DNA of 64,000 bases. It comes from an uncultured Clostridia bacterium (lineage in GTDB: Bacteria; Bacillota; Dehalobacteriia; UBA4068; CALXSR01). The DNA is taken from the NCBI GenBank assembly GCA_944391215.1, contig CALXSR010000052.1, forward strand, positions 64,511 through 128,510, written 5' to 3'. Below the pieces are notes generated by a model that did not search any database, had not been told where the DNA came from, and saw only the letters and a program-made list of their open reading frames with translations. This document shows, in pieces, positions 1 through 54,397 of the stretch. The position numbers and the translations under genes are program-made. Positions within the stretch are counted from its first letter, which is position 1, and every line of letters starts with the position of its first letter.

Positions 1-875
1 CGATCCCCGTCGATTTTTTATCCATTCGACCATTATAACCAGTATATCCTTTTTCAAAAACTCGCGGTATATCTTCTTCGCTAATGCCAATGCCGCTATC
101 TTCTATAACCAAAGTTTTTTGCTGATTAGGCATCATATAGATAGCAATGACCCCTTGGTTAGTATATTTTAAGGCATTAGAAAGCAATTGCTCTATGACA
201 AAAAGCAGCCATTTTTCATCCGTTAGCACAGTACAGTAAAAAGGCTCCAGCTGTAGTGAGATTCTTTTATAAATAAACTGATCGGCATATTTTTTTACCG
301 CTTGTTTTACGATATCCTCTAAACGATAATTTCTTAACAAAAGATCATGCGACATATCTTCTAATTTTAAATACTGTAATACCATTCCCGTATACTGTTC
401 AATTTTAAAAAGCTCTTGTTGCAACTCTTCTTTGTGCAAAGATTCTTCCATATCCTGCAACAATAAATGCATAGCGGCAATTGGTGTTTTAATTTGATGC
501 AACCACAAAGTATAATAGTCTAACATTTCACTATATTTTTGATCCGTAAATGAAATATAAGACGCCTTATCTTCCAATAAAATACGAATTAAATTTTGAT
601 ATTCCTTTTCGATTAAATCATGCGCTTCAGGCATTTCACTGCGAACTGCTGCAATATGACAGCTTAATAATTGCAACCGTTCCGCTTTTTGACGAAATTT
701 ATAATAATCATATCCAGCAAATAATAAAGCAAAAAAACAAATTAAAACAGCGGCATATTGCACCGCTTCCTTTGGTATATGATACAGTCTATAAACGATA
801 TAATAAATGATGAAAAAAGCCAAAAAGGCTATTATAATACGTAGTCGGCTTTGTAAATACTTTCTTATCAACTTC
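1..875 (-). CDS. Sensor histidine kinase, small intramembrane-sensing type. Partial: the 3' end runs off the window start.
   Basis: Reverse-strand translation from ATG at 873-875 gives MKLIRKYLQSRLRIIIAFLAFFIIYY... with two N-terminal TM segments. An H-box (KTPIAAMHLLL) and N/G-box-like segments (LSNALKYT, IEDSGIGISEEDIPRVFEKGYTG) follow. The ATG overlaps the upstream response-regulator stop codon. Confidence 0.7.
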
Positions 876-877
876 AT

Positions 878-1552
878 CTACTCACCCACTTGATAACCAA
901 ATCCTTTTTTGGTTAAAACAAAATCAATTAAACCAATTTCCTCCAATTTTTTGCGTAGTCGAGCAATATTCACCGTTAAAGTATTATCGTCAATAAAACT
1001 ATCGCTTTCCCAAAGACGCTTCATTATTTCACTGCGTGATACCGTTCGGCCCTCATTCTCTAATAAAATTTGCAGTATTTTAAACTCGTTTTTGGTTAAT
1101 TCCACTTTTTTTTCCTGATAACGCAATGTAGTGTCGCTTAAATTTAAAATGGCGCCTTTATGTTCTAATAATTTGGTTTGCCCTTGAAAAGAATAAGTCC
1201 GCCGCAAAAGCGCTTGTATTTTTGCAACCAATACATTAAAGTCAAAGGGTTTTGCTATAAAATCATCCGCTCCCATATTGACTGCCATGACAATATTTAT
1301 ATTGTCGCTAGCAGAGGAGAGAAAAATAATTGGTACTTTCGATATTTGCCTAATTTGCGCACACCAATGATAGCCATTAAAAAACGGCAAAGAGATATCC
1401 ATTAAAACCAGCTGAGGCTCAAAATCGGCAAATTTCTCTAATACTTTATTAAAATCTGTGACATAAGAAGCAATAAAGCCCCATTTTGCCAAATGTTTTT
1501 CTAATAAAGCCGCAATCGTAAAATCATCTTCAACAATTAAAATTTTATACAT
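878..1552 (-). CDS. OmpR-family response regulator with a receiver domain and a winged-helix DNA-binding domain.
   Basis: 224 aa: MYKILIVEDD...MDISLP receiver domain, then a C-terminal trans_reg_C-like segment (TLTVNIARLRKKLEE...GFGYQ). Confidence 0.85.
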   Translation of the reverse strand: MYKILIVEDDFTIAALLEKHLAKWGFIASYVTDFNKVLEKFADFEPQLVLMDISLPFFNGYHWCAQIRQISKVPIIFLSSASDNINIVMAVNMGADDFIAKPFDFNVLVAKIQALLRRTYSFQGQTKLLEHKGAILNLSDTTLRYQEKKVELTKNEFKILQILLENEGRTVSRSEIMKRLWESDSFIDDNTLTVNIARLRKKLEEIGLIDFVLTKKGFGYQVGE

Positions 1553-1561
1553 AAAAACACC

Positions 1562-2191
1562 CTATCTAGCTACTGGTAAGCGCAACACCGTTTTTAAGCG
1601 TTCTACCGCCGTCTTGCGCGGATCGCTTAAATAAATTTCATGATGCTTGCGCTGTTTTCCAGTCATATTTTTTAAATTATTTTGCTTCATAAAATCCTGC
1701 ATTTGTTCCAAAGAAGCGGATTCCTTTTCATAAGAACCAATATGCAGCATTTGCACACATAACCCCTCTGTAAAGGAACAAAAACGGGCCTTACTGGTAT
1801 CAATTTGCGGCTTCTTTCGACTGCATTCTGCCAAAGCCCACTGAAAGACCTCTTCTGTTACAAAATCTGGTTGGCGAATCATAGAAGTCCAACACCAACT
1901 GCTTTTAGGTTGCGTAAAATCCAATGCGCCATCAGCGCTCCACCATAGGCCCTCTAATGGCGGCACCACATATTCAACATAACCGGGAATTTGTTTATTG
2001 CCCATTTTGCTCATTTTAATGATAAAAGTTAATGCATATAAGGCTTGTAATGCATCTTGATAGGCCGATCCTTGCGGAGCGCCCTGCCCGTCTATCATAA
2101 TAAACTGCATGTGCGGTACGTCTATCAACATCGGTTTTTGTTTCGGTAAATAAAAATCCTTATACTCTTTTTTATAATCCAATTTATTCAT
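1562..2191 (-). CDS. GyrI-like small-molecule-binding domain protein.
   Basis: 209-aa ORF ending 9 nt upstream of the response-regulator start, so it is co-oriented and probably co-transcribed. The PLEGLWW and GLCVQMLHIGSYE segments are reminiscent of the GyrI-like / AraC effector-binding fold. Confidence 0.45.
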   Translation of the reverse strand: MNKLDYKKEYKDFYLPKQKPMLIDVPHMQFIMIDGQGAPQGSAYQDALQALYALTFIIKMSKMGNKQIPGYVEYVVPPLEGLWWSADGALDFTQPKSSWCWTSMIRQPDFVTEEVFQWALAECSRKKPQIDTSKARFCSFTEGLCVQMLHIGSYEKESASLEQMQDFMKQNNLKNMTGKQRKHHEIYLSDPRKTAVERLKTVLRLPVAR

Positions 2192-2497: not shown

Positions 2498-3543
2498 CTA
2501 CCAAACATGCCCTTCTAATTGTGGCAAGTCGGCCATAAACGTTTCCTTTTTCTTTCGCCAAATAGGAAGCCTTGATTGATACCACCTGTCCGCCAGGTGC
2601 ATCCCTAAAACAATAGCAATCCCATCGAAAAGGCAAAAAATACGATTTTTTATTGCTACAGAAGCATCAAATAATACCAAAGAAGCATTCAAGGCATTGA
2701 TGGCATTGGCTATCTGTTGGTATTTATACTGTTTAGCAAAAGAAAACATGGTGATAAAACCAATAAACAAGATCAAATAAATGGTATCATCATCAGGAAT
2801 TAACCAACAACAGAAAACAAGAAAGCATATGCTACCAATCACAGTACCCGCAAAACGATATTTCATATATTGTATCGTATGCTGGAATTCCGGTTTGGTT
2901 AGCGACATAACTACAATACTAATCCAAAGCGGTTTTGTAAGATGGAATGCCTGACCGATAAACATAGCGCAAGAAATACCCGCCCCCCATACGCAAAATA
3001 AAACTACGGTTTTTGTGCACAAAGCTTTATTTGCTTCGGTAATGAAATCATTTTCCTTGCTCCATAACCACGTTTTTGCCAGGCGTACAACGTAACTACC
3101 ACAACAAAGATAGCCCCTATCGCTAACCCCAATAGGCGCAATACTAAATCCTGTCCATATACCGGGATAACCTGACAAAAAATATAGCACAATAAAAACG
3201 GCATCTGCAACCCCAATTCCTTGGGTTCGCAAGTGAAAAGTAAAATGATAGCAACCATAACAAAATTCAGCATACAACCTAACCAAAGATTGGATAAAGA
3301 AAAGGCTGCAATCAATCCGCAACTAAAATAAAGGGCAAAAATAAACGAAGCAAATTGCTTCGGCTTCATTATAATATTGCAACTTGGGAACATTTGCATT
3401 CCCACTTGAATGGCAATACCTGGCAACATATTTTTTGTTCCAAACAGTAAAGCAAAAATACTGATAAAAGCTAAAATACTAATAAAATGAACCGCATTTT
3501 TTATTACGGTTCTACAAATATTTATGAAAGTCTCTTTGGTCAT
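2498..3543 (-). pseudogene. ArAE/FUSC-like aromatic-acid exporter family membrane protein, interrupted by a frameshift. An N-terminal ORF and a C-terminal ORF overlap in different frames.
   Basis: ORF 3004..3600 (N-terminal TM region; start MTKETF at 3543 with RBS GAAGGAAGGGAA) and ORF 2498..3322 (TM helices plus a cytoplasmic tail) overlap by about 320 bp in different frames. Adding one A to the A5 run (plus-strand T run at 3011-3015) joins ...KLCAQK to TVVLFCVWGAG..., giving one roughly 348-aa protein. Confidence 0.55.
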
Positions 3544-3677
3544 GAATTCTAATTCCCTTCCTTCTTTTTTATTATAGCAAGAAAGAAAAGAGTTATACAA
3601 TAACGTCGCTTTGTGAAGAATTCATGAAAAATAAAAGGAGGCAAAGAAACCCCTTTTACCTCCTGATTATTACTCAA

Positions 3678-4833: not shown

Positions 4834-5406
4834 TTATTTTTTAAATAATAAATGCTGACATTTTAAATAATAATCGACCCCAGAATAAACGGTAAAAAAT
4901 ACTGCTAACCATAAAGTAATCTGACCTATCCAATAAATCAAAGTATTGATAATGGTATTACCAAATATGGACAAAATAACCGGGGAATCGTATAAAATCA
5001 AACCGGAAATCGCAACAATTTGTACAATTGTTTTTATTTTACCTAGTTTAGAGGCAGATATCACTTCACCTTCTGCCGCAGCAATCGTACGCAAACCGGT
5101 AACAGCAAACTCTCTGCTAATAATGATGATAACAAACCAAGCGCTAATTTTATCTAATTGCAAAAGGGCGATCAAAGCAGTTGATACCAAAAGTTTATCT
5201 GCCAAAGGATCCAAAAATTTTCCTAAAGTAGTAACCTGCTTTCTAGAACGAGCAATGTATCCGTCCAACCCATCAGTACTAGCCGCAACAATAAAAATAA
5301 TCGCCGCTAATAAACTACCATATTCAGGTATTTCTGTTAACAAAACAATCAAAAAAACAGGAACCAGAAAGATACGAGCTAAGGTAATTTTATTGGCTAA
5401 ATTCAC
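4834..5406 (-). CDS. pgsA: CDP-diacylglycerol--glycerol-3-phosphate 3-phosphatidyltransferase.
   Basis: 190 aa, multi-TM, with the CDP-alcohol phosphatidyltransferase motif DGLDGYIAR...G..LDP.ADK. Confidence 0.85.
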   Translation of the reverse strand: MNLANKITLARIFLVPVFLIVLLTEIPEYGSLLAAIIFIVAASTDGLDGYIARSRKQVTTLGKFLDPLADKLLVSTALIALLQLDKISAWFVIIIISREFAVTGLRTIAAAEGEVISASKLGKIKTIVQIVAISGLILYDSPVILSIFGNTIINTLIYWIGQITLWLAVFFTVYSGVDYYLKCQHLLFKK

Positions 5407-6737
5407 TAGCGAATCAACCTACCTTTCAAATCGTAAATATCGCTATCGGTAATTTCTACTTCTACCACATCGCCAACATTAAGCTGCTCAGCCGCTACAT
5501 AAATTACCCCGTCTACTTCCGGCGCTTGATAACAACAACGGCCCACATAATAAGGACTTCCTGCAACCGGTAATTCCTCAATCAAAACCGTAAAAATTTT
5601 ACCAATACGGGCAGCCCTTTTCTGTGCCGAAATACCCGCTAATAATTGCATTGCCTTATCCTGTCGGCTTTGCTTAATCCAATCCGGAATTTGTCCTTTC
5701 ATTGTTTCCGCCTTGGTTCCATCTTCTGGGCAAAAAGAGAAAACTCCCACCCAATCAAACTGCGCCTTTTCTATAAAGGACAATAAGTTTTTAAAATCTG
5801 CAGCTGTTTCCCCAGGAAAACCAACCATCAAAGTAGTTCGAATTGCGATATTAGGAATATATGCCCGACATTTTGCTAATAGGTCTAAAAGTTGCGCACT
5901 ATCCCCTTGCCGATTCATAGCCTGTAAAACACTTTTCTCACTGTGCTGCAAAGGAATATCCAAATAAGGACAAATTTTTTCTTCTTCTGTCATTACTTGT
6001 AATAATTCGTCCGTAATACGATCCGGATAAGTATATAAAATACGAATCCACAAAAAAGGCAAGCGACAAAGTTTTTTTAATAAAGTAGGCAAATAGTAGC
6101 TGCCATATAAATCTTTTCCATAATTCGTCGTATCCTGCGCCACTAGAATAAGTTCTTTTACGCCTCTCTGCGCTAGTATTTTAGCCTCTTCTATAATATC
6201 TTCCATTGGTCGACTGCTATATTTACCCCGAATAGCAGGAATTGCACAATACGCACAACAATTATTACAACCATCAGCAATGCGTAAATAAGCAAAATGA
6301 CCAGGACTCAATAATTTACGCCGACAATATATGGTATTATCCATTTTAGGCACACAACTACGTAACTTAGCAAAACCATTTATTTGACAAAGCAATGGGG
6401 CCAACTCCCCTACTTTATAGAATCCATCCACCTCAGGGATTTCATGCATTAACTCTTCGGCATATCTTTGTACTAAACACCCCATCGCAATCAATAACTG
6501 ACATTGGCCAAACTCTTTTTCTTTATACTGTGCCATCGTTAAAATGGTTTCAATAGCCTATTCTTTGGCAGACTGAATGAAACCGCAGGTATTCACGATG
6601 ATAATATCAGCGTCCTGCGGTTCTTCTACTATGACATATCCTTCTTGTTGTAATAAACCCAAAAGGATTTCACTATCCACCTGATTTTTGGAACATCCCA
6701 AACTAGCCAAATAAACAGTATTTTGCAATTTAATCAT
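5406..6737 (-). CDS. rimO: Ribosomal protein S12 methylthiotransferase RimO (MiaB-family radical SAM plus TRAM domain). It carries an in-frame TAG at 6558-6560, which is codon 60.
   Basis: The reverse translation from ATG at 6735-6737 reads [73 protein letters not shown]... The MTTase N-domain continues in the same frame into the 376-aa ORF 5406..6536, which holds the radical-SAM CxxxCxxC motif and a C-terminal TRAM domain. Total length is about 443 codons, matching RimO. Confidence 0.75.
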
Positions 6738-10228: not shown

Positions 10229-11837
10229 TTATAAATCTTGCTGAATAACACGAGCAATATTATTTGCATGGTCCCCTACCCGCTCTAAATTACCAATCAT
10301 ATCCAAAAAGACAATGCCGGAAGCCGGAATACATTTTCCATCACTTAAACGCGTAATATGGCTTTTGCGCAGTATCTTTTCCATATCGTCAATGGCATTT
10401 TCCTGGGCTAAAATTCGCTTCGCATACATAATGTCGCTTTTTTTCAACCCCTCAATGGCACTATACAAAATATCGCTTGTTAAAGCCGCCATCGTACGCA
10501 GTTCCTCTAAAGCCAAAGAAGAAAAATACAAATTTTCATCCATACTGGTTTGCGCTAATTCACAAATATTGGTAGAATGATCACTCACTCGTTCAAAGTC
10601 ATGCGTTGCCTGAATTAAACCGGTTACTATAGCCGAATCATGATCCGTTAAGCCTTGTTGCGCTACTTTTGATAAATAAGTATTAATTGCCGTTTCCAAG
10701 CTATCTATCACATCTTCTTTTTCCATCACATCTTTTATCTGTTCTTTATCCTTTTGAAAAAAAAGCCTGCATAGCATTTTCAAAATTCTCAGTTGCCAAC
10801 TCTCCCATACGGGTCAATTCTTTTTTTGCTAGGGAAATAGCAATACTAGGAGTAGCGATGCTTTTATTGTTCAAGTAAAGAGGTCCCTTTACAATCACTC
10901 TTTCTTCCCCAGGCATAATACGGTTAACTAAAGCAACAAACTGATTGATAAAAGGTAATAAAATAATGGTAGTGATGCAGTTAAAGATGGTATGCGCATT
11001 GGCAATTTGCCGGGCAATATCCGCCCCGGAAGATAATGTTTCTACCAAAATTTTAAAATAGGGCAAAAACAACATACATAATATAGCGCCAATTACATTA
11101 AATAAAACATGAGAAAGCGCGGCCTTTCTAGCATTCAGTTTAGTGCCAATACTAGCTAACATAGCGGTAATACAAGTTCCAATATTCATCCCCAGCATAG
11201 CCGGTAAAGCAACGTCTAAACCAATTAACCCCTGCGAACTCATAGCAATCAAAATACCAATCGTAGCACTACTACTTTGCACAACAAATGTAATAAGCAT
11301 CCCAATTAATAAAATTAAAACGCTATGGCCACCAAAACGAATAATAAAATCCTGGAACATAACGGAATCTCGTAAAGGAACCATAGAACTACTCATAATT
11401 TCCATGCCCATAAAAAGAAGGCCAAAGGAGAAGAAAACAAAACCCGTATACTTCAATGTATTTTTTTTCGCAATAAAATAAATTAAAAAACCAAATGCTA
11501 AAATAGGCAAATAATAATCGCCTAAATCAAAGGCAATCAATTGAGCTGTAACCGTAGTACCAATATTAGCACCAATAATAACGGCTACCGCCTGTTTCAA
11601 AGTCATTAACCCGGCGTTAACAAAACCGATTACCATAACGGAAGTTGCGCTACTGCTCTGAATAATAGCAGTAACAACAGTACCCAATAGAACCCCTAAA
11701 ATAGGATTACTTGTCAGAGCGCTTAATATACTCCGCATGCGGTCCCCAGCTATTTTTTGCAGACCGGTTCCCATATTGGTCATACCATAGATAAATAAAG
11801 CTAAGCCGCCAAAGAGGCTCAAAACACTCATTACCAT
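10229..11837 (-). pseudogene. Na/Pi-cotransporter II-related protein (YjbB-like transporter domain plus C-terminal PhoU-like domains), split by a frameshift at a T8 homopolymer.
   Basis: ORF 10746..11837 (363 aa) is the transporter domain; ORF 10229..10783 (184 aa) holds the PhoU-like repeats. They overlap by 38 nt in different frames. Removing one base from the A8 run at 10757-10764 (T8 on the coding strand) fuses ...AMQAFF to QKDKEQIKDV..., giving a single protein of about 547 aa. Confidence 0.6.
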
Positions 11838-28897: not shown

Positions 28898-31800
28898 TTA
28901 GAGCGCTCTTTTTATCTCTTCCATAACAAAAGCTTCTATCACGTCGCCTTCATGGAAATCATTAAAGTTTTCAAAACTAATGCCGCACTCAAAGCCTTCC
29001 ATAACTTCTTTCACATCATCTTTAAACCGTTTTAAAGAATCAATTTTATCTTCCGTTACCACAATACCATTGCGCGTTAAACGCACTTGCGCCTGTCTTG
29101 TAATTTTGCCATCTGTGATATAGGAACCCGCTACCATGCCAGCTTTTGGTACTTTAATAACTTGACGCACTTCAGCATGACCAATAACGACTTCTTTAAA
29201 TTCAGGATCAAGCAGACCAGACATCGCTTTTTTCACATCCTCAATCGCATCATAAATAACGCGATAAGTGCGAATATCCACTTGTTCTGTTTCCGCCAAT
29301 TTACTAGCCGGAATAGATGGCCGTACATTAAACCCAATAATGATAGCAGTAGAAGCCGTTGCCAACATAACATCAGACTCTGTAATCGCCCCAACGCCAC
29401 TATGAATAATATTTACTTTCACTTCATTATTATTCAAATTAGTTAAGGATTGTTTTACCGCCTCAACAGAACCCTGCACATCAGCTTTTACAATTAAGTT
29501 TAATTCCTTAATTTCCCCTTCGGCAATATGGGTAAATAAATCTTCTAAAGTAATTTTGCTGTTTTTACGCAATTCTTCTTCCCGTTTTTTAGATTGCAAT
29601 TTTGCCGCCACAGATTTTGCATCACGTTCATCCTTAGCCACAATAAAGATTTCACCCGGCGGCGGTACTTCAGAAAAACCAATTACTTCAACCGGCATGG
29701 AAGGTCCAGCAGCCTTTACCTTACGACCTTTATCATCTAGCATCGCCCGTACTTTACCAAACACCGAACCGGCTAAAATATTATCGCCCACTTTTAAAGT
29801 ACCTTTTTGTACTAATAAAGTGGCCAAAGGCCCTCTTCCTTTATCTAATTGCGATTCGATAATGGTGCCACGAGCTTTCCGTTTGGGGTTCGCTTTTAAT
29901 TCAGCCACTTCGGCAACCAATAATATCATTTCTAAAATTTGTGCAATATTTTGGCCAGTCTTCGCAGCTACAGGAACCATAATGGTATCGCCGCCCCATT
30001 CTTCTGCAACCAAACCATATTCCATCAATTCCTGTTTTACTTTATCCGGATTCGCCCCTTGTTTATCTATTTTATTAATTGCAACAATAATAGGCACATT
30101 TGCTGCTTTGGCATGGTTAATAGCTTCCACCGTTTGTGGCATAACGCCATCATCAGCGGCCACTACTAAAACTGCAACATCCGTTACCTGTGCTCCACGG
30201 GCACGCATCGATGTAAAAGCTTCATGACCAGGCGTATCTAAAAATGTAATTTTCTTATTATTGATTTCTACTTGATAAGCCCCAATATGCTGTGTAATAC
30301 CGCCAGCTTCGGTAGCAATTACATTGGTTTTACGAATCGCGTCCAATAAAGAGGTCTTCCCATGGTCAACATGCCCCATTACCGTAACAACAGGAGGCCG
30401 TTCCATCAAATCATCCTCATCATCATCTGCATCTTCCATAATTTCTATGGCTTTATCGGCCGCTACTTCCACGGTAATGCCGAATTCTTCCGCCAGCAAA
30501 ATGGCAGTATCCGACTCTAACTCCTGATTGATAGTTGCCATAACGCCCATTTCAAAAAGCTTTTTAATCACTTCAGCAGCTGTTTTTCCCATACTTTTTG
30601 CTAAATCTTGCAAAACAACGGTTTCGCCAATCACAACCTTTTTCGGCACAACAGGCGGCATTTGTTTCTTCGGCGCTACATTTTTATTTTTACGCCCTCT
30701 ATCGTTGCGATGAGGAATTTTACCGCTTTTTTTTCCCATCCCATCTTCGCCAAAATTATCATTTAATACATCACGATTATCCTTAAATAATTTTTTATCT
30801 GGCCTACGACTGGTCGGCTTTTCTACCGCTGGAGTTGTATATTTCATACCGCCTTCTATACTGCCGGTTGTCTTTGGACCACGGTTCTGCCCACTATTTC
30901 CGGCAAATCCGCCAGCAGGGCGCAGACCACGGTTTCCTTGACTGGGACTTCCTTGAAAACCACCGGCAGAACGCGGACCGCGATTATCCTGCCCTTGATA
31001 ATTGGGGCGCGGACCGCGATTGTCTTGCCCTTGCTAATTGGGGCGCGGACCGCGATTGTCCTGCCCTTGGTAATTGGGGCGCGGACCGCGATTGTCCTGC
31101 CCTTGGTAATTGGGGCGCGGACCGCGATTGTCTTGCCCTTGATAATTCGGGCGCGGACCGCGATTATCTCTATTATCTTGTTGATAATTTGTATTTTGAT
31201 TTCTTTGTTGTTGATGAAAATCACGATTAGGAACAGGCGTATTTTGTCTGCTTGCTTTCTTTTCAATAGTTTCTTCCAGCATGGCATCATTTGTTGTTTT
31301 CACTGCTTGTTGCGGCGGAGTAACCGGAACAATAGTTGGTGGTGCTTCTTCTTTTTCCGTATTATTAACAGGAGTCTCAGGAGTAGTTTTCAGTTCTTCA
31401 GACACCGAAAGAATGGGCGCCTTTTCCGCAACAGATGCTTCTGTTTTTGGCATTTCTTTTTTAGGAGCAGATTGAACTACCGGCTCTTCTTTTTTCTCAA
31501 TTACAACTGCCTTCTTCTCTTCAGACGGTATCACGGCTTCTTTTTCCACAATTTTTTCCGTCTTTTTCTCCTCTGTTTGCGCTACCACTTTTTCTGAATT
31601 AACCAAAACATCTGCTTCTATTTTTGTTACCATATTTTCTTCGGTTCCTTTATTCCCCTCTGTTATTTCTGTTTTCTTCTTAGCATCCAAGTTAAAGGCC
31701 TCCATTTCAGAAGCTTCTAAATCCGTTTTTCGAATTCTTTTTACCCTTGGGATAAAAGAAGTATCATCATTTTTATTTTTGCTGCTTTTTTTCCCACTTA

Positions 31801-31948
31801 TACTTTCCCGCAAAGCTTTACAGTACTGTTCTTCCACAGTACTCATATGATTTTTGGCCTCGCTTCCCAAAGCATTTAAGCGGCCCAGCAAATCTTTTGT
31901 TTCTAAATTCAACTCCTTGGCCAACTCATGCACTCTTATTTTAGCCAT
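28898..31948 (-). CDS. infB: Translation initiation factor IF-2. The reading frame is continuous apart from one in-frame TAG at 31034-31036.
   Basis: The canonical N-terminus [13 protein letters not shown] sits at 31946-31948 behind RBS AGGAG. The G-domain ([24 protein letters not shown]) and C-terminal domains lie in ORF 28898..30847. Both ORFs share one frame (31036 minus 30847 equals 189, a multiple of 3). The only interruption is the TAG inside the repeat array. Confidence 0.85.
30968..31165 (-). repeat. About 5.4 tandem copies of a 36-bp unit inside the infB N-terminal region, encoding repeats of [12 protein letters not shown].
   Basis: Near-identical 36-nt units (gcggaccgcgattgtcctgcccttggtaattggggc and variants) can be read directly. 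They generate the alternative-frame ORFs 30856..31290 and 30938..31597. Confidence 0.85.
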
Positions 31949-50137: not shown

Positions 50138-50518
50138 TTAATCCCTTTTTGTTACCAAATTAGGAGCTTTTTCCTTTAATTTATTAAAAGTTTGTTCACT
50201 AATAACATGTTCAATGCGACAAGCATCCGCAGCAGCAACTTCTTCTTCAACCCCTATTGCGATTAAAAATTCCGTTAAAAAGCGATGTTTTTCATAAATA
50301 CTTTCCGCAATGGCCAAGCCGGAAGCAGTAAGTTGAATTTGTCCATCTTTATCCATGATAATATGACCCGCTTGTTTTAAAATTGCCATAGCTCGACTAA
50401 CGCTCGGTTTCGTAAAATTTAAGAAACCGGCAATATCAATAGAACGCACGGAACCATTTTTGTTTTTTAAAACTAAAATTGCTTCCAAATAGTTTTCCCC
50501 AGACTCTTGTATTCTCAT
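50138..50518 (-). CDS. DtxR/MntR-family metal-dependent transcriptional repressor.
   Basis: 126 aa with an N-terminal HTH (NYLEAILVLKNKNGSVRSIDIAGFLNFTKPSVSRAMAILKQAGHI) and a dimerisation / metal-binding region. It is adjacent to feoAB. Confidence 0.8.
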   Translation of the reverse strand: MRIQESGENYLEAILVLKNKNGSVRSIDIAGFLNFTKPSVSRAMAILKQAGHIIMDKDGQIQLTASGLAIAESIYEKHRFLTEFLIAIGVEEEVAAADACRIEHVISEQTFNKLKEKAPNLVTKRD

Positions 50519-50756
50519 GGAAGACTCCCCCCCTCTCCCTTTTTATCAATCACAAATTATAGCACGAAAACGAATCATGAGCAATGCAGCAAAATGCTTG
50601 ATAAAACGCTTGTAAAAATTTGATTTACACATCCAAGCTTTATCGTCTAACCAAATGGGGAAACTTCCGGATGCTATTTAGGCTCCACTTATTTCATAAT
50701 AAATAGGGAAAACCAAGTTTCTTATCGTTAACAAATTATATTTTTTGCTTTACAAA

Positions 50757-50792: not shown

Positions 50793-50978
50793 TTATTTTT
50801 TACAGCGGCAATCGACATTGCAACCATTACAGCTTCCATTATTTTGCTTTTTACTGCTGCAACAAGAACCATCTGGACAGCCAATACACTTTTTACCACC
50901 TTTTTTGGCTTTCCATACATAAAAGGCAGCAAAACCTATGATGATGATCACTATCATAATAATGATACCGTTTTCCAT
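50793..50978 (-). CDS. FeoB-associated Cys-rich small membrane protein.
   Basis: 61 aa: one TM helix (IIIMIVIIIIGFAAFYVW), a Lys-rich segment, then CIGCPDGSCCSS...CNGCNVDCRCKK. It ends 16 nt downstream of the feoB stop. Confidence 0.6.
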   Translation of the reverse strand: MENGIIIMIVIIIIGFAAFYVWKAKKGGKKCIGCPDGSCCSSKKQNNGSCNGCNVDCRCKK

Positions 50979-50993
50979 GAGAAAAACTCCTTG

Positions 50994-53024
50994 CTAATTT
51001 TTTACAGTTGCCGCAGGCCCCGTTTTTCCGCCGCGCAAGGCATATTCTTCCTTTAGTTTCTTATTGGAATTTCTACAAAGCCATGCAACAATGCCAACCA
51101 TAACAACAACCGCAACAAGCCCCGGCAAAAAACCGGCACCAATCGTTCCAGTAGTAACAATAGTCCCAACTTGATATACGAAATAACTCACGATATAGCC
51201 AACCCCAAACTGCAAACCAATACCACCCCAAAGCCATTTTCTACTCTTAATTTCACTTCTCATGGCACCAATAGCAGCAAAGCAAGGCGGTGTATAAAGG
51301 TTAAACATCAAATATGCCAAAGCCGCCACTTTAGTAATAGCTATAATACCAGCCACCTCTGCGCCAGCCCCTTCCATCATAGCCAGTTCCTCGGTATCAA
51401 TAAAGTTTTCCAGGCCCACAAAGCAAACAGCAAGCGTGCCAACAACATTTTCTTTGGCAATAAAGCCGGTAACCGCTGCCGCAGCAAGCTGCCAAGAAAG
51501 AACCCCTACAATTGGAACTAGCAAATAAGCAAACGGCCCAGCAATAGATGCAAGTATAGAACTATCAGCAGTTGCAGCAACGTGGAAGCTCCAATCAAAC
51601 GTCTGCATAATTTGTACTGCCGTGTTACAAAGCAAAATAATTGTAGATGCTTTCACGATGTAAGCCCATCCACGCGCACACATTGATTTAAAACCTCTCC
51701 AAAGGCTAGGTGTCTTATATTCAGGCAATTCAATAATAAAAAACGATTTTCTCACTTTATATCCAGCAATTTTATTAACAAGCAGGGCCCCAAAGAAGAT
51801 AAGAATAATACCAACAAAATACATCAAAGGGCCCACCCAGGGGGCATCCGCAAAGAAAGCACCGGCAAAAAGGGAAATAACAGGAAGCTTCGCCCCACAA
51901 GGCATAAAGGGGGTAAGCATGGCTGTAGCCCTACGTTCCCGTTCATTACGAATCGTGCGGCAGGCCATAACGCCAGGAATAGCACAACCAGTACCAATTA
52001 CAAAAGGAATTACTGACCTCCCCGAAAGTCCCACTTTTTTAAAAATAGGATCTAATACAACTGATGCACGGGCCATATAGCCACAATCTTCTAAAAGAGC
52101 AATCAAGAAATACATTACCATAACAAGGGGCAAAAAACCAACAACAGCAATAACGCCACCAATAATACCATCAATAAGAAGGGCCGATAACAAAGGATTT
52201 GCATTTTCTACCAAACCGCCAACCCAGCCTTGAAAACTTTCGAGTAATGGAACAAGAGCACCATCAGCAATCAAAGGGCCCAGCCACGCTTGGGAAATAT
52301 AAAATACCAAATACATAATGGCGGCAAAAATAGGAATACCAAGCCATTTATTTGTAAGAACAGCATCGATCTTATCACCGAAATTCTTTTCTTTCGTAAG
52401 CACTTTGCGGTTTTCCACCGTCGCTACAATTTTATTAACAAAATCAAAACGTTTCCTGTCTGCAGCTTCTACCGCATTTTTATCTGTAAGATCAATGTCC
52501 TCTTGTACATAAGGAGCAACCTGCTCTTTTCCATACTGTTCAACAACAGCTTTTATTACCTCAGTAAGGCCTTCTGCTGAGGTAGAAACCGTATTTACCA
52601 CAGGACAGCCCAATTTTTCCGCTAATGCTCTAGTATCAATTCGGTTCTCTTTCTTTTTATTAATATCCACTTTATTAAGTGCAACAACCACAGGAATACC
52701 CAACTCTAAAAGCTGTGTAGTAAAAAACAAACTACGACTTAAATTGGTTGCATCAACAATATTAATAATAACGTCCGGCTTTTCATGCTTTACATAAGAG
52801 CTAGTAATACTTTCTTCCGAAGTAAATGGAGACATCGAATAGGCACCTGGTAAATCAACAGCAATGAGTTCCTCAGCTCCATCATAGTAACTTTTTTTAA
52901 TGGGGTGTTCTTTTTTTTCAACAGTAACCCCTGCCCAGTTACCAACCTTTTCATTGCGACCGGTCAGCGCATTATACATAGTGGTTTTCCCACTATTGGG
53001 GTTACCGGTTAAAGCAATTCTCAT
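50994..53024 (-). CDS. feoB: Ferrous iron transport protein B.
   Basis: 676 aa with an N-terminal G-domain (GNPNSGKTT) and a polytopic membrane domain. Confidence 0.95.
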   Translation of the reverse strand: MRIALTGNPNSGKTTMYNALTGRNEKVGNWAGVTVEKKEHPIKKSYYDGAEELIAVDLPGAYSMSPFTSEESITSSYVKHEKPDVIINIVDATNLSRSLFFTTQLLELGIPVVVALNKVDINKKKENRIDTRALAEKLGCPVVNTVSTSAEGLTEVIKAVVEQYGKEQVAPYVQEDIDLTDKNAVEAADRKRFDFVNKIVATVENRKVLTKEKNFGDKIDAVLTNKWLGIPIFAAIMYLVFYISQAWLGPLIADGALVPLLESFQGWVGGLVENANPLLSALLIDGIIGGVIAVVGFLPLVMVMYFLIALLEDCGYMARASVVLDPIFKKVGLSGRSVIPFVIGTGCAIPGVMACRTIRNERERRATAMLTPFMPCGAKLPVISLFAGAFFADAPWVGPLMYFVGIILIFFGALLVNKIAGYKVRKSFFIIELPEYKTPSLWRGFKSMCARGWAYIVKASTIILLCNTAVQIMQTFDWSFHVAATADSSILASIAGPFAYLLVPIVGVLSWQLAAAAVTGFIAKENVVGTLAVCFVGLENFIDTEELAMMEGAGAEVAGIIAITKVAALAYLMFNLYTPPCFAAIGAMRSEIKSRKWLWGGIGLQFGVGYIVSYFVYQVGTIVTTGTIGAGFLPGLVAVVVMVGIVAWLCRNSNKKLKEEYALRGGKTGPAATVKN

Positions 53025-53130: not shown

Positions 53131-53358
53131 TTAAGTATTTTCTTTACATAGTATTATCGCAGCAGCAAGTTGAGAATCAATATTATATCTACCGTCTTTA
53201 ATGGAGACAACACAACCCCCTTTTAAATGAGAAATAACCGTAATAGGTTCACCGCTATAGCAACCAAGAGAAAACAAAAAAGAGTTCAATTCTTCATCCT
53301 CAGTTTCCACTTGTTTAATAATATATTCTATTCCTTCTTGCGCCATATTTAAGTTCAT
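53131..53358 (-). CDS. feoA: Ferrous iron transport protein A (FeoA domain).
   Basis: 75-aa FeoA/SH3-like domain directly upstream of feoB. Confidence 0.8.
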   Translation of the reverse strand: MNLNMAQEGIEYIIKQVETEDEELNSFLFSLGCYSGEPITVISHLKGGCVVSIKDGRYNIDSQLAAAIILCKENT

Positions 53359-53429
53359 AATTTTCCCCTAACTTATCATATACCAAATTACTACATAGAA
53401 ATTGCCGCTTAATCCAATTTTTAAGGCAG

Positions 53430-53443
53430 TTAGCTATCGCTAA
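53430..53443. promoter_or_regulatory. Palindrome TTAGC-N4-GCTAA about 75 nt upstream of feoA; a candidate operator for the DtxR-family regulator.
   Basis: The sequence TTAGCTATCGCTAA has 5-bp arms with a 4-nt spacer, and its arms resemble the IdeR/DtxR iron-box TTAGG...CCTAA. Confidence 0.3.
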
Positions 53444-53683
53444 TTGATGTAAGTATACCGCCAAATTTTCTATTTGTCAACTATTTCATTTTTTAAATTT
53501 CGTCTATTACTTAAAATAAAACGCATAATAGACAATCTGTTCATTATAAAAAGAATTTGATAAAATATATTTTGCTTGGGGATTCTAAAAAGAAAAATGT
53601 TTTTTGTGCTCTCTATTTTGTCTTATAAACAAACAATAAATACAATCTCTTGTTTTTTATCTTGCTAGGAAGGGATGATTTTT

Positions 53684-53866
53684 ATGTCTTGGTTTACAGC
53701 AAACTTAGCAACGATTTTAATTTGTGTTGTTTTATTGACTCTATTTATTTTAGCCATACGCTCTATCGTAAAAAAGAATAAAGATAACGGTTGTGGATAC
53801 TGTACAGGTTGTTCCGCAGACACAAACAAACCAAATAATACCAACTGTCATTGTCATCGCAAATAA
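53684..53866 (+). CDS. FeoB-associated Cys-rich small membrane protein; a paralog of 50793..50978, divergently oriented from feoA.
   Basis: MSWFTANLATILICVVLLTLFILAI is a TM helix, followed by a Lys-rich segment and GCGYCTGCSAD...CHCHRK. Start set at the second ATG with RBS GGAAGGGA. Confidence 0.55.
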   Translation: MSWFTANLATILICVVLLTLFILAIRSIVKKNKDNGCGYCTGCSADTNKPNNTNCHCHRK

Positions 53867-53892
53867 ATACAAACAGATATCCCTTTCGCAAT

Positions 53893-53921
53893 TTGACAAG
53901 ATATTGTTAGAAGAGTATGAT
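53893..53921 (+). promoter_or_regulatory. Sigma-A-type promoter (TTGACA, 17-nt spacer, TATGAT) upstream of the ArsR-family gene.
   Basis: Consensus-like hexamers with 17-nt spacing, read directly. The ArsR RBS AAGGAGGAG is about 35 nt downstream. Confidence 0.45.
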
Positions 53922-53971
53922 TAATTTAGCAAATGTTATAATATTGCGTCTAAGGAGGAGATTGTTTTTTT

Positions 53972-54325
53972 ATGACTGAACCACTCCATGACCATGGTAA
54001 AAATAGCGATAAGTTGTTGGCTTCCATGCCAACAGAAGCCAATTTTATAAAAGCAGCTGATACCTTTCAGCAATTATGCGACAGCACTCGATTAAAAATA
54101 CTTTGGCTATTATGTCATAGTGAAGAATGCGTCTATAATATTGCTGCCGCAGTTGGCATGAGCGGATCAGCCGTTTCTCACCATCTAAGAACCTTAAAAC
54201 AAACTGGCTTGATTCAATACCAACGGATTGGTAAAGAAGTACATTATACTTTAGCAAATACCGCCGAAGCCCGTTTGGTGCATCAAATGATTGATGATAT
54301 TTTTGAAATGCATTGTCTAAAATAA
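53972..54325 (+). CDS. ArsR/SmtB-family metal-sensing transcriptional repressor.
   Basis: 117 aa with an HTH (CDSTRLKILWLLCHSEECVYNIAAAVGMSGSAVSHHLRTL) and Cys and His residues at the positions metal-sensing sites occupy in this family. Confidence 0.8.
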   Translation: MTEPLHDHGKNSDKLLASMPTEANFIKAADTFQQLCDSTRLKILWLLCHSEECVYNIAAAVGMSGSAVSHHLRTLKQTGLIQYQRIGKEVHYTLANTAEARLVHQMIDDIFEMHCLK

Positions 54326-54350
54326 GATATATTTAAAATATATAGTTAAA

Positions 54351-54388
54351 CAAAAAAGAGGCCGGCAAATTGCCGGTCTCTTTCTCAT
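54351..54388. terminator. Bidirectional Rho-independent terminator between the ArsR gene and the NSS transporter gene.
   Basis: AGAGGCCGGC-aaatt-GCCGGTCTCT stem with an A-run flank and a T-run flank. Confidence 0.75.
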
Positions 54389-54397
54389 TCTAACAGA

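Follow-up and report, generated by a model that had tools for sequence, protein, structure and literature searches.

The gene rimO, which encodes the methylthiotransferase of ribosomal protein S12, is interrupted by an in-frame TAG in the stretch of DNA analyzed here (64 kb in all, hereafter the window), and a second in-frame TAG interrupts infB, the gene for IF-2. The question raised by this locus is whether the rimO TAG is translated as a sense codon, whether it is a genuine nonsense mutation, or whether it is an error in the deposited sequence. The first-pass annotation left two alternatives for the pair of codons, coincidental changes or amber read-through. Coincidence is the alternative favored by the comparisons presented below; read-through is not, given the presence of GAG and TAT at these sites in relatives and the common use of TAG as a stop codon. 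The rimO TAG is probably a nonsense mutation private to this lineage, in which the GAG of Glu60 became TAG, and which produced a loss-of-function allele of a dispensable gene, rather than a recoding signal. The change would be an ordinary gene-inactivating mutation.

The rimO frame runs on the minus strand from an ATG at position 6737 to a TAG at 5408..5406, which is immediately followed by a TGA. Its start, its end at 5406, the TAG at codon 60, and the 59 residues that precede this codon are exactly as first described. The features of the locus are as follows:

5406..6737, minus strand: rimO (30S ribosomal protein S12 methylthiotransferase), 443 sense positions, with codon 60 as the interruption
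6558..6560, minus strand: the in-frame TAG, rimO codon 60, the sole interruption of the frame
6561..6737, minus strand: N-terminal rimO fragment of 59 codons, containing Cys15 and Cys51, two of the three auxiliary [4Fe-4S] cluster ligands of the UPF0004 domain
5406..6536, minus strand: downstream rimO open reading frame of 376 aa, beginning at the ATG of codon 68 and retaining Cys87, the radical-SAM CxxxCxxC motif, and the TRAM domain
4834..5406, minus strand: pgsA (CDP-alcohol phosphatidyltransferase, PF01066), whose GTG start overlaps the rimO stop (TAGTG)

Besides the TAG, no further decay is present in the rimO frame. The conceptual translation (with X at position 60) matches the Pfam domains UPF0004 (PF00919, residues 8-105), Radical_SAM (PF04055, residues 153-322), and TRAM_2 (PF18693, residues 378-442), so the radical-SAM and TRAM domains earlier ascribed to the continuing frame are indeed there. 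The same translation scores 482.3 bits against the RimO equivalog model TIGR01125 (cutoff 356.95); the MiaB and MtaB models, at 257.9 and 237.4 bits, each fall under their own cutoffs. Judged by these profile models, the interrupted gene is a full RimO equivalog. Cys15, Cys51, and Cys87 are all found in the translation, as is the CxxxCxxC motif (C-NNC-C-AY-C). The family motif for the auxiliary cluster is Cys-X35-36-Cys-X32-33-Cys (PMC5352715), and the corresponding ligands in E. coli RimO are Cys17, Cys53, and Cys82 (PMC3347575). In the window the TAG is positioned between the second (Cys51) and third (Cys87) of these ligands, and rimO does not form an uninterrupted single-polypeptide frame. 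The ATG at codon 68 lies 8 codons past the TAG (21 nt after it), and no Shine-Dalgarno sequence was found at this ATG.

The genes rodZ, rimO, and pgsA are closely packed on the minus strand. At one end of rimO the stop codon is shared with the start of pgsA (5403-5408); at the other, the rodZ stop and the rimO start overlap by 8 nt (6730-6737, ATGATTAA). The overlaps at both ends of rimO suggest translational coupling along rodZ-rimO-pgsA, and the translation of pgsA may be coupled to that of rimO via the TAGTG overlap. In model bacteria, pgsA is essential.

Contigs of close relatives were reached by an exact-protein look-up with the product of the neighboring pgsA gene. Two contigs, L001 (ENA sample ERZ27349973) and L002 (NCBI MAG GCA_947853085.1), are 99.2% identical to the window across 8 kb, and in both of them rimO is called as an intact gene of 443 aa. 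Base-by-base comparison with the window shows that codon 60 is GAG (Glu) in L001 and in L002. The window codon is one base away, the change being G to T on the coding strand and C to A at position 6560 of the plus strand. At the protein level, the 90%-identity RimO cluster comprises five members: three distinct full-length alleles, one contig-end fragment (98 aa), and one 376-aa form. Glu60 is present in each of the three full-length alleles (P0001, P0002, and P0005). Codon 60 is covered at the DNA level by two independent samples, to which the protein level adds two further alleles. A look-up with RodZ for additional samples over codon 60 returned just the two known contigs, and patterns written across each of the TAGs, with the variable base left open, had 0 matches in JGI metagenomes.

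Conservation beyond this close group was assessed with an alignment of 76 RimO sequences, in which the two close relatives were joined by distant homologs fetched from a genome collection. The scan of the genome collection with RimO found distant relatives only (identity of 48% or less), which are informative for conservation alone. Glutamate occupies position 60 in 75 of the 76 aligned sequences. The TAG thus falls at a conserved position, as the first-pass annotation had it, and the residue there is Glu rather than the Glu/Gln that was proposed. In these alignments, the rimO TAG is a change private to this lineage, at a glutamate that hardly varies.

The 376-aa form of RimO (P0004) comes from one NCBI contig, 134,038 bp long, and matches the window reading frame past the TAG exactly. 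All three fragment products of the window (P0004, P0007, and P0008) are recorded from this one contig, and in the deposited assembly rimO and infB are both called as fragments, with products of 376, 649, and 304 aa. Since the fragments are on record from the same NCBI contig, both TAGs belong to the deposited assembly, and an origin of the TAGs after deposition was ruled out. Exact look-ups of the RimO fragments (376 and 59 aa) and of the IF-2 fragments (304 and 649 aa) brought up no additional contig.

The report of a single in-frame TAG in infB holds as well, and this codon lies at position 305 of an otherwise open frame. The features of this second locus are as follows:

28898..31948, minus strand: infB (IF-2), a frame of 1016 codons in which codon 305 is an in-frame TAG
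31034..31036, minus strand: the infB in-frame TAG, which falls within a 36-nt tandem repeat (12-residue peptide), in its fourth full unit
30972..31165, minus strand: the array of 36-nt tandem repeats, in the disordered N-terminal linker of IF-2
28898..30847, minus strand: internal infB open reading frame of 649 aa, beginning at the ATG of codon 368, which the deposited assembly lists as a gene of its own (P0007, identical)

The infB TAG lies upstream of the entire IF-2 core. Sister units of the repeat have TAC or TAT (Tyr) at the place where the window has TAG. In the relative L082, infB is intact (1004 aa) and TAT occupies the position matching the TAG; the window has one repeat unit more than L082. 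The 649-aa open reading frame covers positions 2-585 of the 587 positions of the model TIGR00487, with a score of 878 bits, and the Shine-Dalgarno sequence of its ATG is a weak match (AAGG). The 304-aa fragment that precedes the TAG is also on record from the same NCBI contig and is identical to that of the window. In E. coli, shorter isoforms are made naturally from infB, and IF2 lacking the N-terminal third of its residues keeps cells viable if it is present in excess (PMC3334882). Given the complete IF-2 core in the 649-aa frame and this E. coli precedent, read-through of the infB TAG need not be invoked to account for survival. The replacement of Tyr by the infB TAG and of Glu by the rimO TAG further argues against one consistent decoding of the codon. 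An in-frame loss of a 36-nt repeat, or recombination between repeats, could drop the unit that carries the TAG, restoring full-length infB faster than point reversion.

In the window, TAG serves as a normal stop codon. Among the 55 curated genes of the window, 41 end in TAA, 8 in TAG, and 6 in TGA, and the stop codon of rimO itself is TAG. The TAG-terminated gene ends match the gene ends called in relatives, and in the stretches that relatives do not cover, the Pfam domain matches of the genes are complete or nearly so. The only in-frame stops in the 55 genes are the TAGs of rimO and infB, with no other internal TAG, TAA, or TGA. If the natural TAG stops were read through, the cost would be visible: up to 66 extra codons would be added after feoB, and three same-frame genes on the minus strand (2191..1) would be fused.

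The first-pass annotation also suggested a search for a suppressor tRNA or a Pyl cassette, which yielded nothing in the 64 kb of the window or in relatives' contigs totaling about 80 kb: neither a tRNA with a CUA anticodon nor any of the pyl genes (pylTSBCD) was seen there. The tRNAs of the window are tRNA-Leu(CAG) and tRNA-Pro(GGG) only, relatives' contigs hold the same two, and an Rfam scan of the window returned nothing beyond them. A recoding structure 3' of the rimO TAG was likewise lacking: for the 120 nt that begin at the TAG, the folding energy is -20.4 kcal/mol, which gives a z-score of 0.01 relative to shuffled sequences. The related genomes do not have a conserved in-frame UAG at the orthologous site.

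Two gene layouts in the window concern TAG stops and same-frame neighbors. In the region 1-2191 (minus strand), a GyrI-like gene (1562-2191), a response regulator gene (878-1552), and the next downstream gene share one frame and are parted by TAG stops and a 9-nt spacer alone, with no TAA or TGA in frame up to the start of the window. This one-frame layout is probably a matter of chance; amber read-through would fuse the genes. In the region 50793-53024 (minus strand), feoB (676 aa) ends in TAG and is followed 15 nt on, in the same frame, by a small FeoB-associated open reading frame of 61 aa (50793-50978), and the same layout is found in the relative L096.

The background of divergence against which the two TAGs are to be judged was obtained from relatives whose contigs align to 50 kb of the window with an identity of 99.2-99.9%. 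The window and its relatives differ by 112 synonymous, 34 nonsynonymous, 2 nonsense, and 27 intergenic changes. Changes private to the window include 59 synonymous and 21 nonsynonymous substitutions, a ratio that follows the pattern of purifying selection. It follows that most of the private changes are real and that errors do not pervade the consensus. Private changes comprise 83 transitions and 18 transversions, both TAG changes being transversions. No signal of relaxed selection on rimO was detected in these counts (6 nonsynonymous or nonsense versus 11 synonymous changes in rimO; 30 versus 101 in other genes; Fisher p = 0.37). Certain aspects of the background count against a simple reading of the rimO TAG as a tolerated mutation: 2 nonsense changes in about 150 coding differences are more than is usual under purifying selection, both are TAG and both transversions, and one of the two is in the essential infB.

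Private disruption of genes in the window is not confined to TAG codons. A third gene is affected:

10229..11837, minus strand: a Na/Pi cotransporter-PhoU fusion gene, split into 363 and 184 aa by a private T7 to T8 run near 10757

This frameshift indicates that disruptive lesions of the lineage or of the assembly are not limited to TAG. In relatives, the same gene is intact in L093 (535 aa), and L092 has a 1-nt deletion of its own (at the window-equivalent position 11433). That the Na/Pi cotransporter gene was disrupted twice independently suggests that selection on it is relaxed or that its runs are prone to slippage.

An insertion of 4 nt at 3576-3579 was considered as a further disruption and dropped, as the probable true start of the gene (MTKETF) lies downstream of it and has a Shine-Dalgarno sequence of its own; the insertion is probably harmless. 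The surrounding region of the minus strand (2498-3600), with a hypothetical gene and a FUSC_2-like gene, is polymorphic for indels when the window is compared with L001/L092 and with L002; the differences are in a C/G run (2983), in 2 nt at 2875, and in the 4 nt at 3576-3579. In the window, the open reading frames 2498-3322 and 3004-3600 overlap in different frames, and the region may be a decaying transporter gene. At 50532, just upstream of a gene for an Fe-dependent repressor (50138-50518), a C-run exceeds that of L096 by one base. The site is in what is likely a promoter or leader, and the extra base reflects either a length polymorphism of the homopolymer or a sequencing error.

The main rival to a loss-of-function allele is an error of the deposited consensus, according to which the true codons are GAG in rimO and TAT in infB and the TAGs come from sequencing, assembly, or polishing. 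Both TAG alleles are confined to one source contig, one of them falls in an essential gene and within a 36-nt tandem repeat of the kind that is error-prone for assembly and polishing, and the homopolymer length differences at about 10757 and at 50532 are typical of sequencing errors. However, such discrepancies number just 1-2 per 50 kb, which speaks against a generally noisy assembly, and with 59 synonymous against 21 nonsynonymous private substitutions few of these can be random errors. Two nonsense errors are also poorly expected. If the private nonsynonymous excess over the shared ratio consisted entirely of errors, about 0.3-0.4 nonsense errors would be expected and the probability of two or more would be about 0.04-0.07; this probability rises to 0.27-0.38 if all 21 private nonsynonymous changes were errors. 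From these sequence comparisons, a real mutation appears somewhat more likely than a base error, and an erroneous consensus, although the foremost competitor, is judged unlikely.

Three further readings would keep the rimO product functional or the TAG codon decoded. Strain-level amber suppression supposes that a CUA tRNA or a Pyl system is encoded elsewhere in the genome, that TAGs are partly read so that full-length RimO and IF2 are still produced, and that TAG alleles accumulate preferentially. The involvement of the essential infB and the otherwise undecayed state of rimO fit this proposal, as does the fact that both nonsense changes are TAG. The share of TAG expected among random nonsense mutations in this coding sequence is 0.27-0.29, so that two of two would arise by chance with a probability of about 0.07-0.08, which is not significant in so small a sample (n = 2). 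Against suppression stand the absence of the TAGs from 99%-identical relatives, the difference between the residues replaced (an almost invariant Glu and a Tyr), and the frequency of TAG as a genuine stop (8 of 55), at which read-through would give long extensions or fused genes; moreover, neither the window nor relatives' contigs contain a CUA-anticodon tRNA, no structure lies 3' of the rimO TAG, and the infB site is explained by the internal 649-aa frame. Suppression is accordingly held to be quite improbable. A functional split enzyme, in which the 59-aa peptide and the 376-aa product associate into active RimO, is hardly credible: the 376-aa frame is intact and starts only 8 codons past the TAG, but its start lacks a Shine-Dalgarno sequence, the break lies inside the three-Cys cluster motif, the arrangement is found in no relative, and the allele is private and recent. 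The least probable reading is a reassignment of the genetic code with TAG read as sense throughout. In its favor, two conserved genes of the 64 kb each contain an in-frame TAG, yet TAG ends 8 of 55 genes at ends that match those of relatives (including rimO, where TAG is followed by TGA), GAG and TAT occupy the two sites in near-identical relatives, and no other window gene has an internal TAG. Reassignment is effectively refuted by stop-codon usage.

Comparison with known systems bears out the ordinary nature of the rimO allele. Like other amber loss-of-function alleles or young pseudogenes, it consists of a single-base change of a conserved sense codon to a stop, is private to one lineage, and has left the gene otherwise undecayed; rimO is also dispensable elsewhere, E. 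coli mutants being viable (PMC3347575). There is no structural difference from such alleles, and the only oddity is the second private TAG, in the essential infB, within the same 64 kb. The window gene shares with the RimO/MiaB family of radical-SAM methylthiotransferases the succession of UPF0004, radical-SAM, and TRAM domains, the cysteines at positions 15, 51, and 87, and CxxxCxxC. It differs from this family in that the frame is broken between the second and third ligands of the auxiliary cluster, and a full-length enzyme is not expected.

Pyrrolysine (UAG) decoding, known from some Bacillota and from methanogens, resembles the present case in that an in-frame UAG occurs in a gene that is otherwise intact. 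Pyrrolysine sites are conserved among orthologs and are found in methylamine methyltransferase genes. In contrast, the window TAGs are absent from 99%-identical relatives, are located in rimO and infB, and replace Glu and Tyr, and the window has neither pyl genes nor a Pyl tRNA. Laboratory amber-suppressor strains, with tRNA anticodon mutants of the supE and supF type, offer another parallel, as a suppressor of this kind would let private TAG alleles be tolerated; however, no CUA tRNA is present in the window or in relatives' contigs, and a strong suppressor would be costly where TAG is a common natural stop. For infB, the closest likeness is to E. coli IF2-1, IF2-2, and IF2-3, which arise from in-frame internal infB starts, and the window similarly has a full IF-2 core in an ATG-started frame of 649 aa. 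Unlike the E. coli isoforms, the internal start in the window is putative, with its AAGG a weak Shine-Dalgarno match.

If the rimO TAG is a nonsense mutation, as favored here, translation of rimO most likely stops after 59 residues. Cys15 and Cys51 would then be parted from Cys87, so that the auxiliary [4Fe-4S] cluster of UPF0004 could not form. From the requirement of the family for a three-Cys cluster (PMC5352715), we infer that RimO would be inactive, and the conserved Asp of S12 would then carry no methylthio group. Such a loss would probably be tolerated, since RimO is dispensable; the growth of an E. coli rimO mutant is only slightly reduced relative to the wild type (PMC3347575). The premature stop could lower the expression of the overlapping pgsA, which may nonetheless be kept expressed through re-initiation at the ATG of codon 68 or through an independent pgsA start. 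The methylthiolation target of RimO in vivo is Asp88/89 of S12. The infB TAG would be an independent event of like kind. It is located in a disordered repeat that precedes the whole IF-2 core, and initiation at the internal start could yield a 649-aa product, similar to IF2-beta, that provides the essential function.

The remaining content of the window bears on the organism from which it came. The window has a GC content of 39% and includes spoIVA, ylzJ, rodZ, dapB, and a run of rimP-nusA-ylxR-L7Ae-infB-rbfA-truB-ribF-rpsO-pnp. This gene content and GC content point to an endospore-forming species of Bacillota, and the species is otherwise found in metagenome assemblies only. One kilobase (53359-54397), flanked by a small gene (53131-53358) and a gene of the sodium:neurotransmitter symporter family, has little coding sequence; it contains a Cys/His-rich open reading frame of 63 aa (53675-53866, plus strand) and another of 117 aa (53972-54325, plus strand), which by its look we take to resemble an ArsR-type HTH regulator.

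Two of the three private lesions of the window are in genes of the translation apparatus, rimO and infB. The lesion in infB suggests that this organism can do without the long, repetitive N-terminal part of IF-2. The TAG in rimO is of little consequence as it stands: it is a strain-specific inactivating allele or a base error, is fit for a pseudogene annotation or a flag, and is not evidence of an altered genetic code. Were a suppressor tRNA present in the source genome, the two TAGs would instead represent natural, strain-level amber suppression shaping which nonsense alleles survive.
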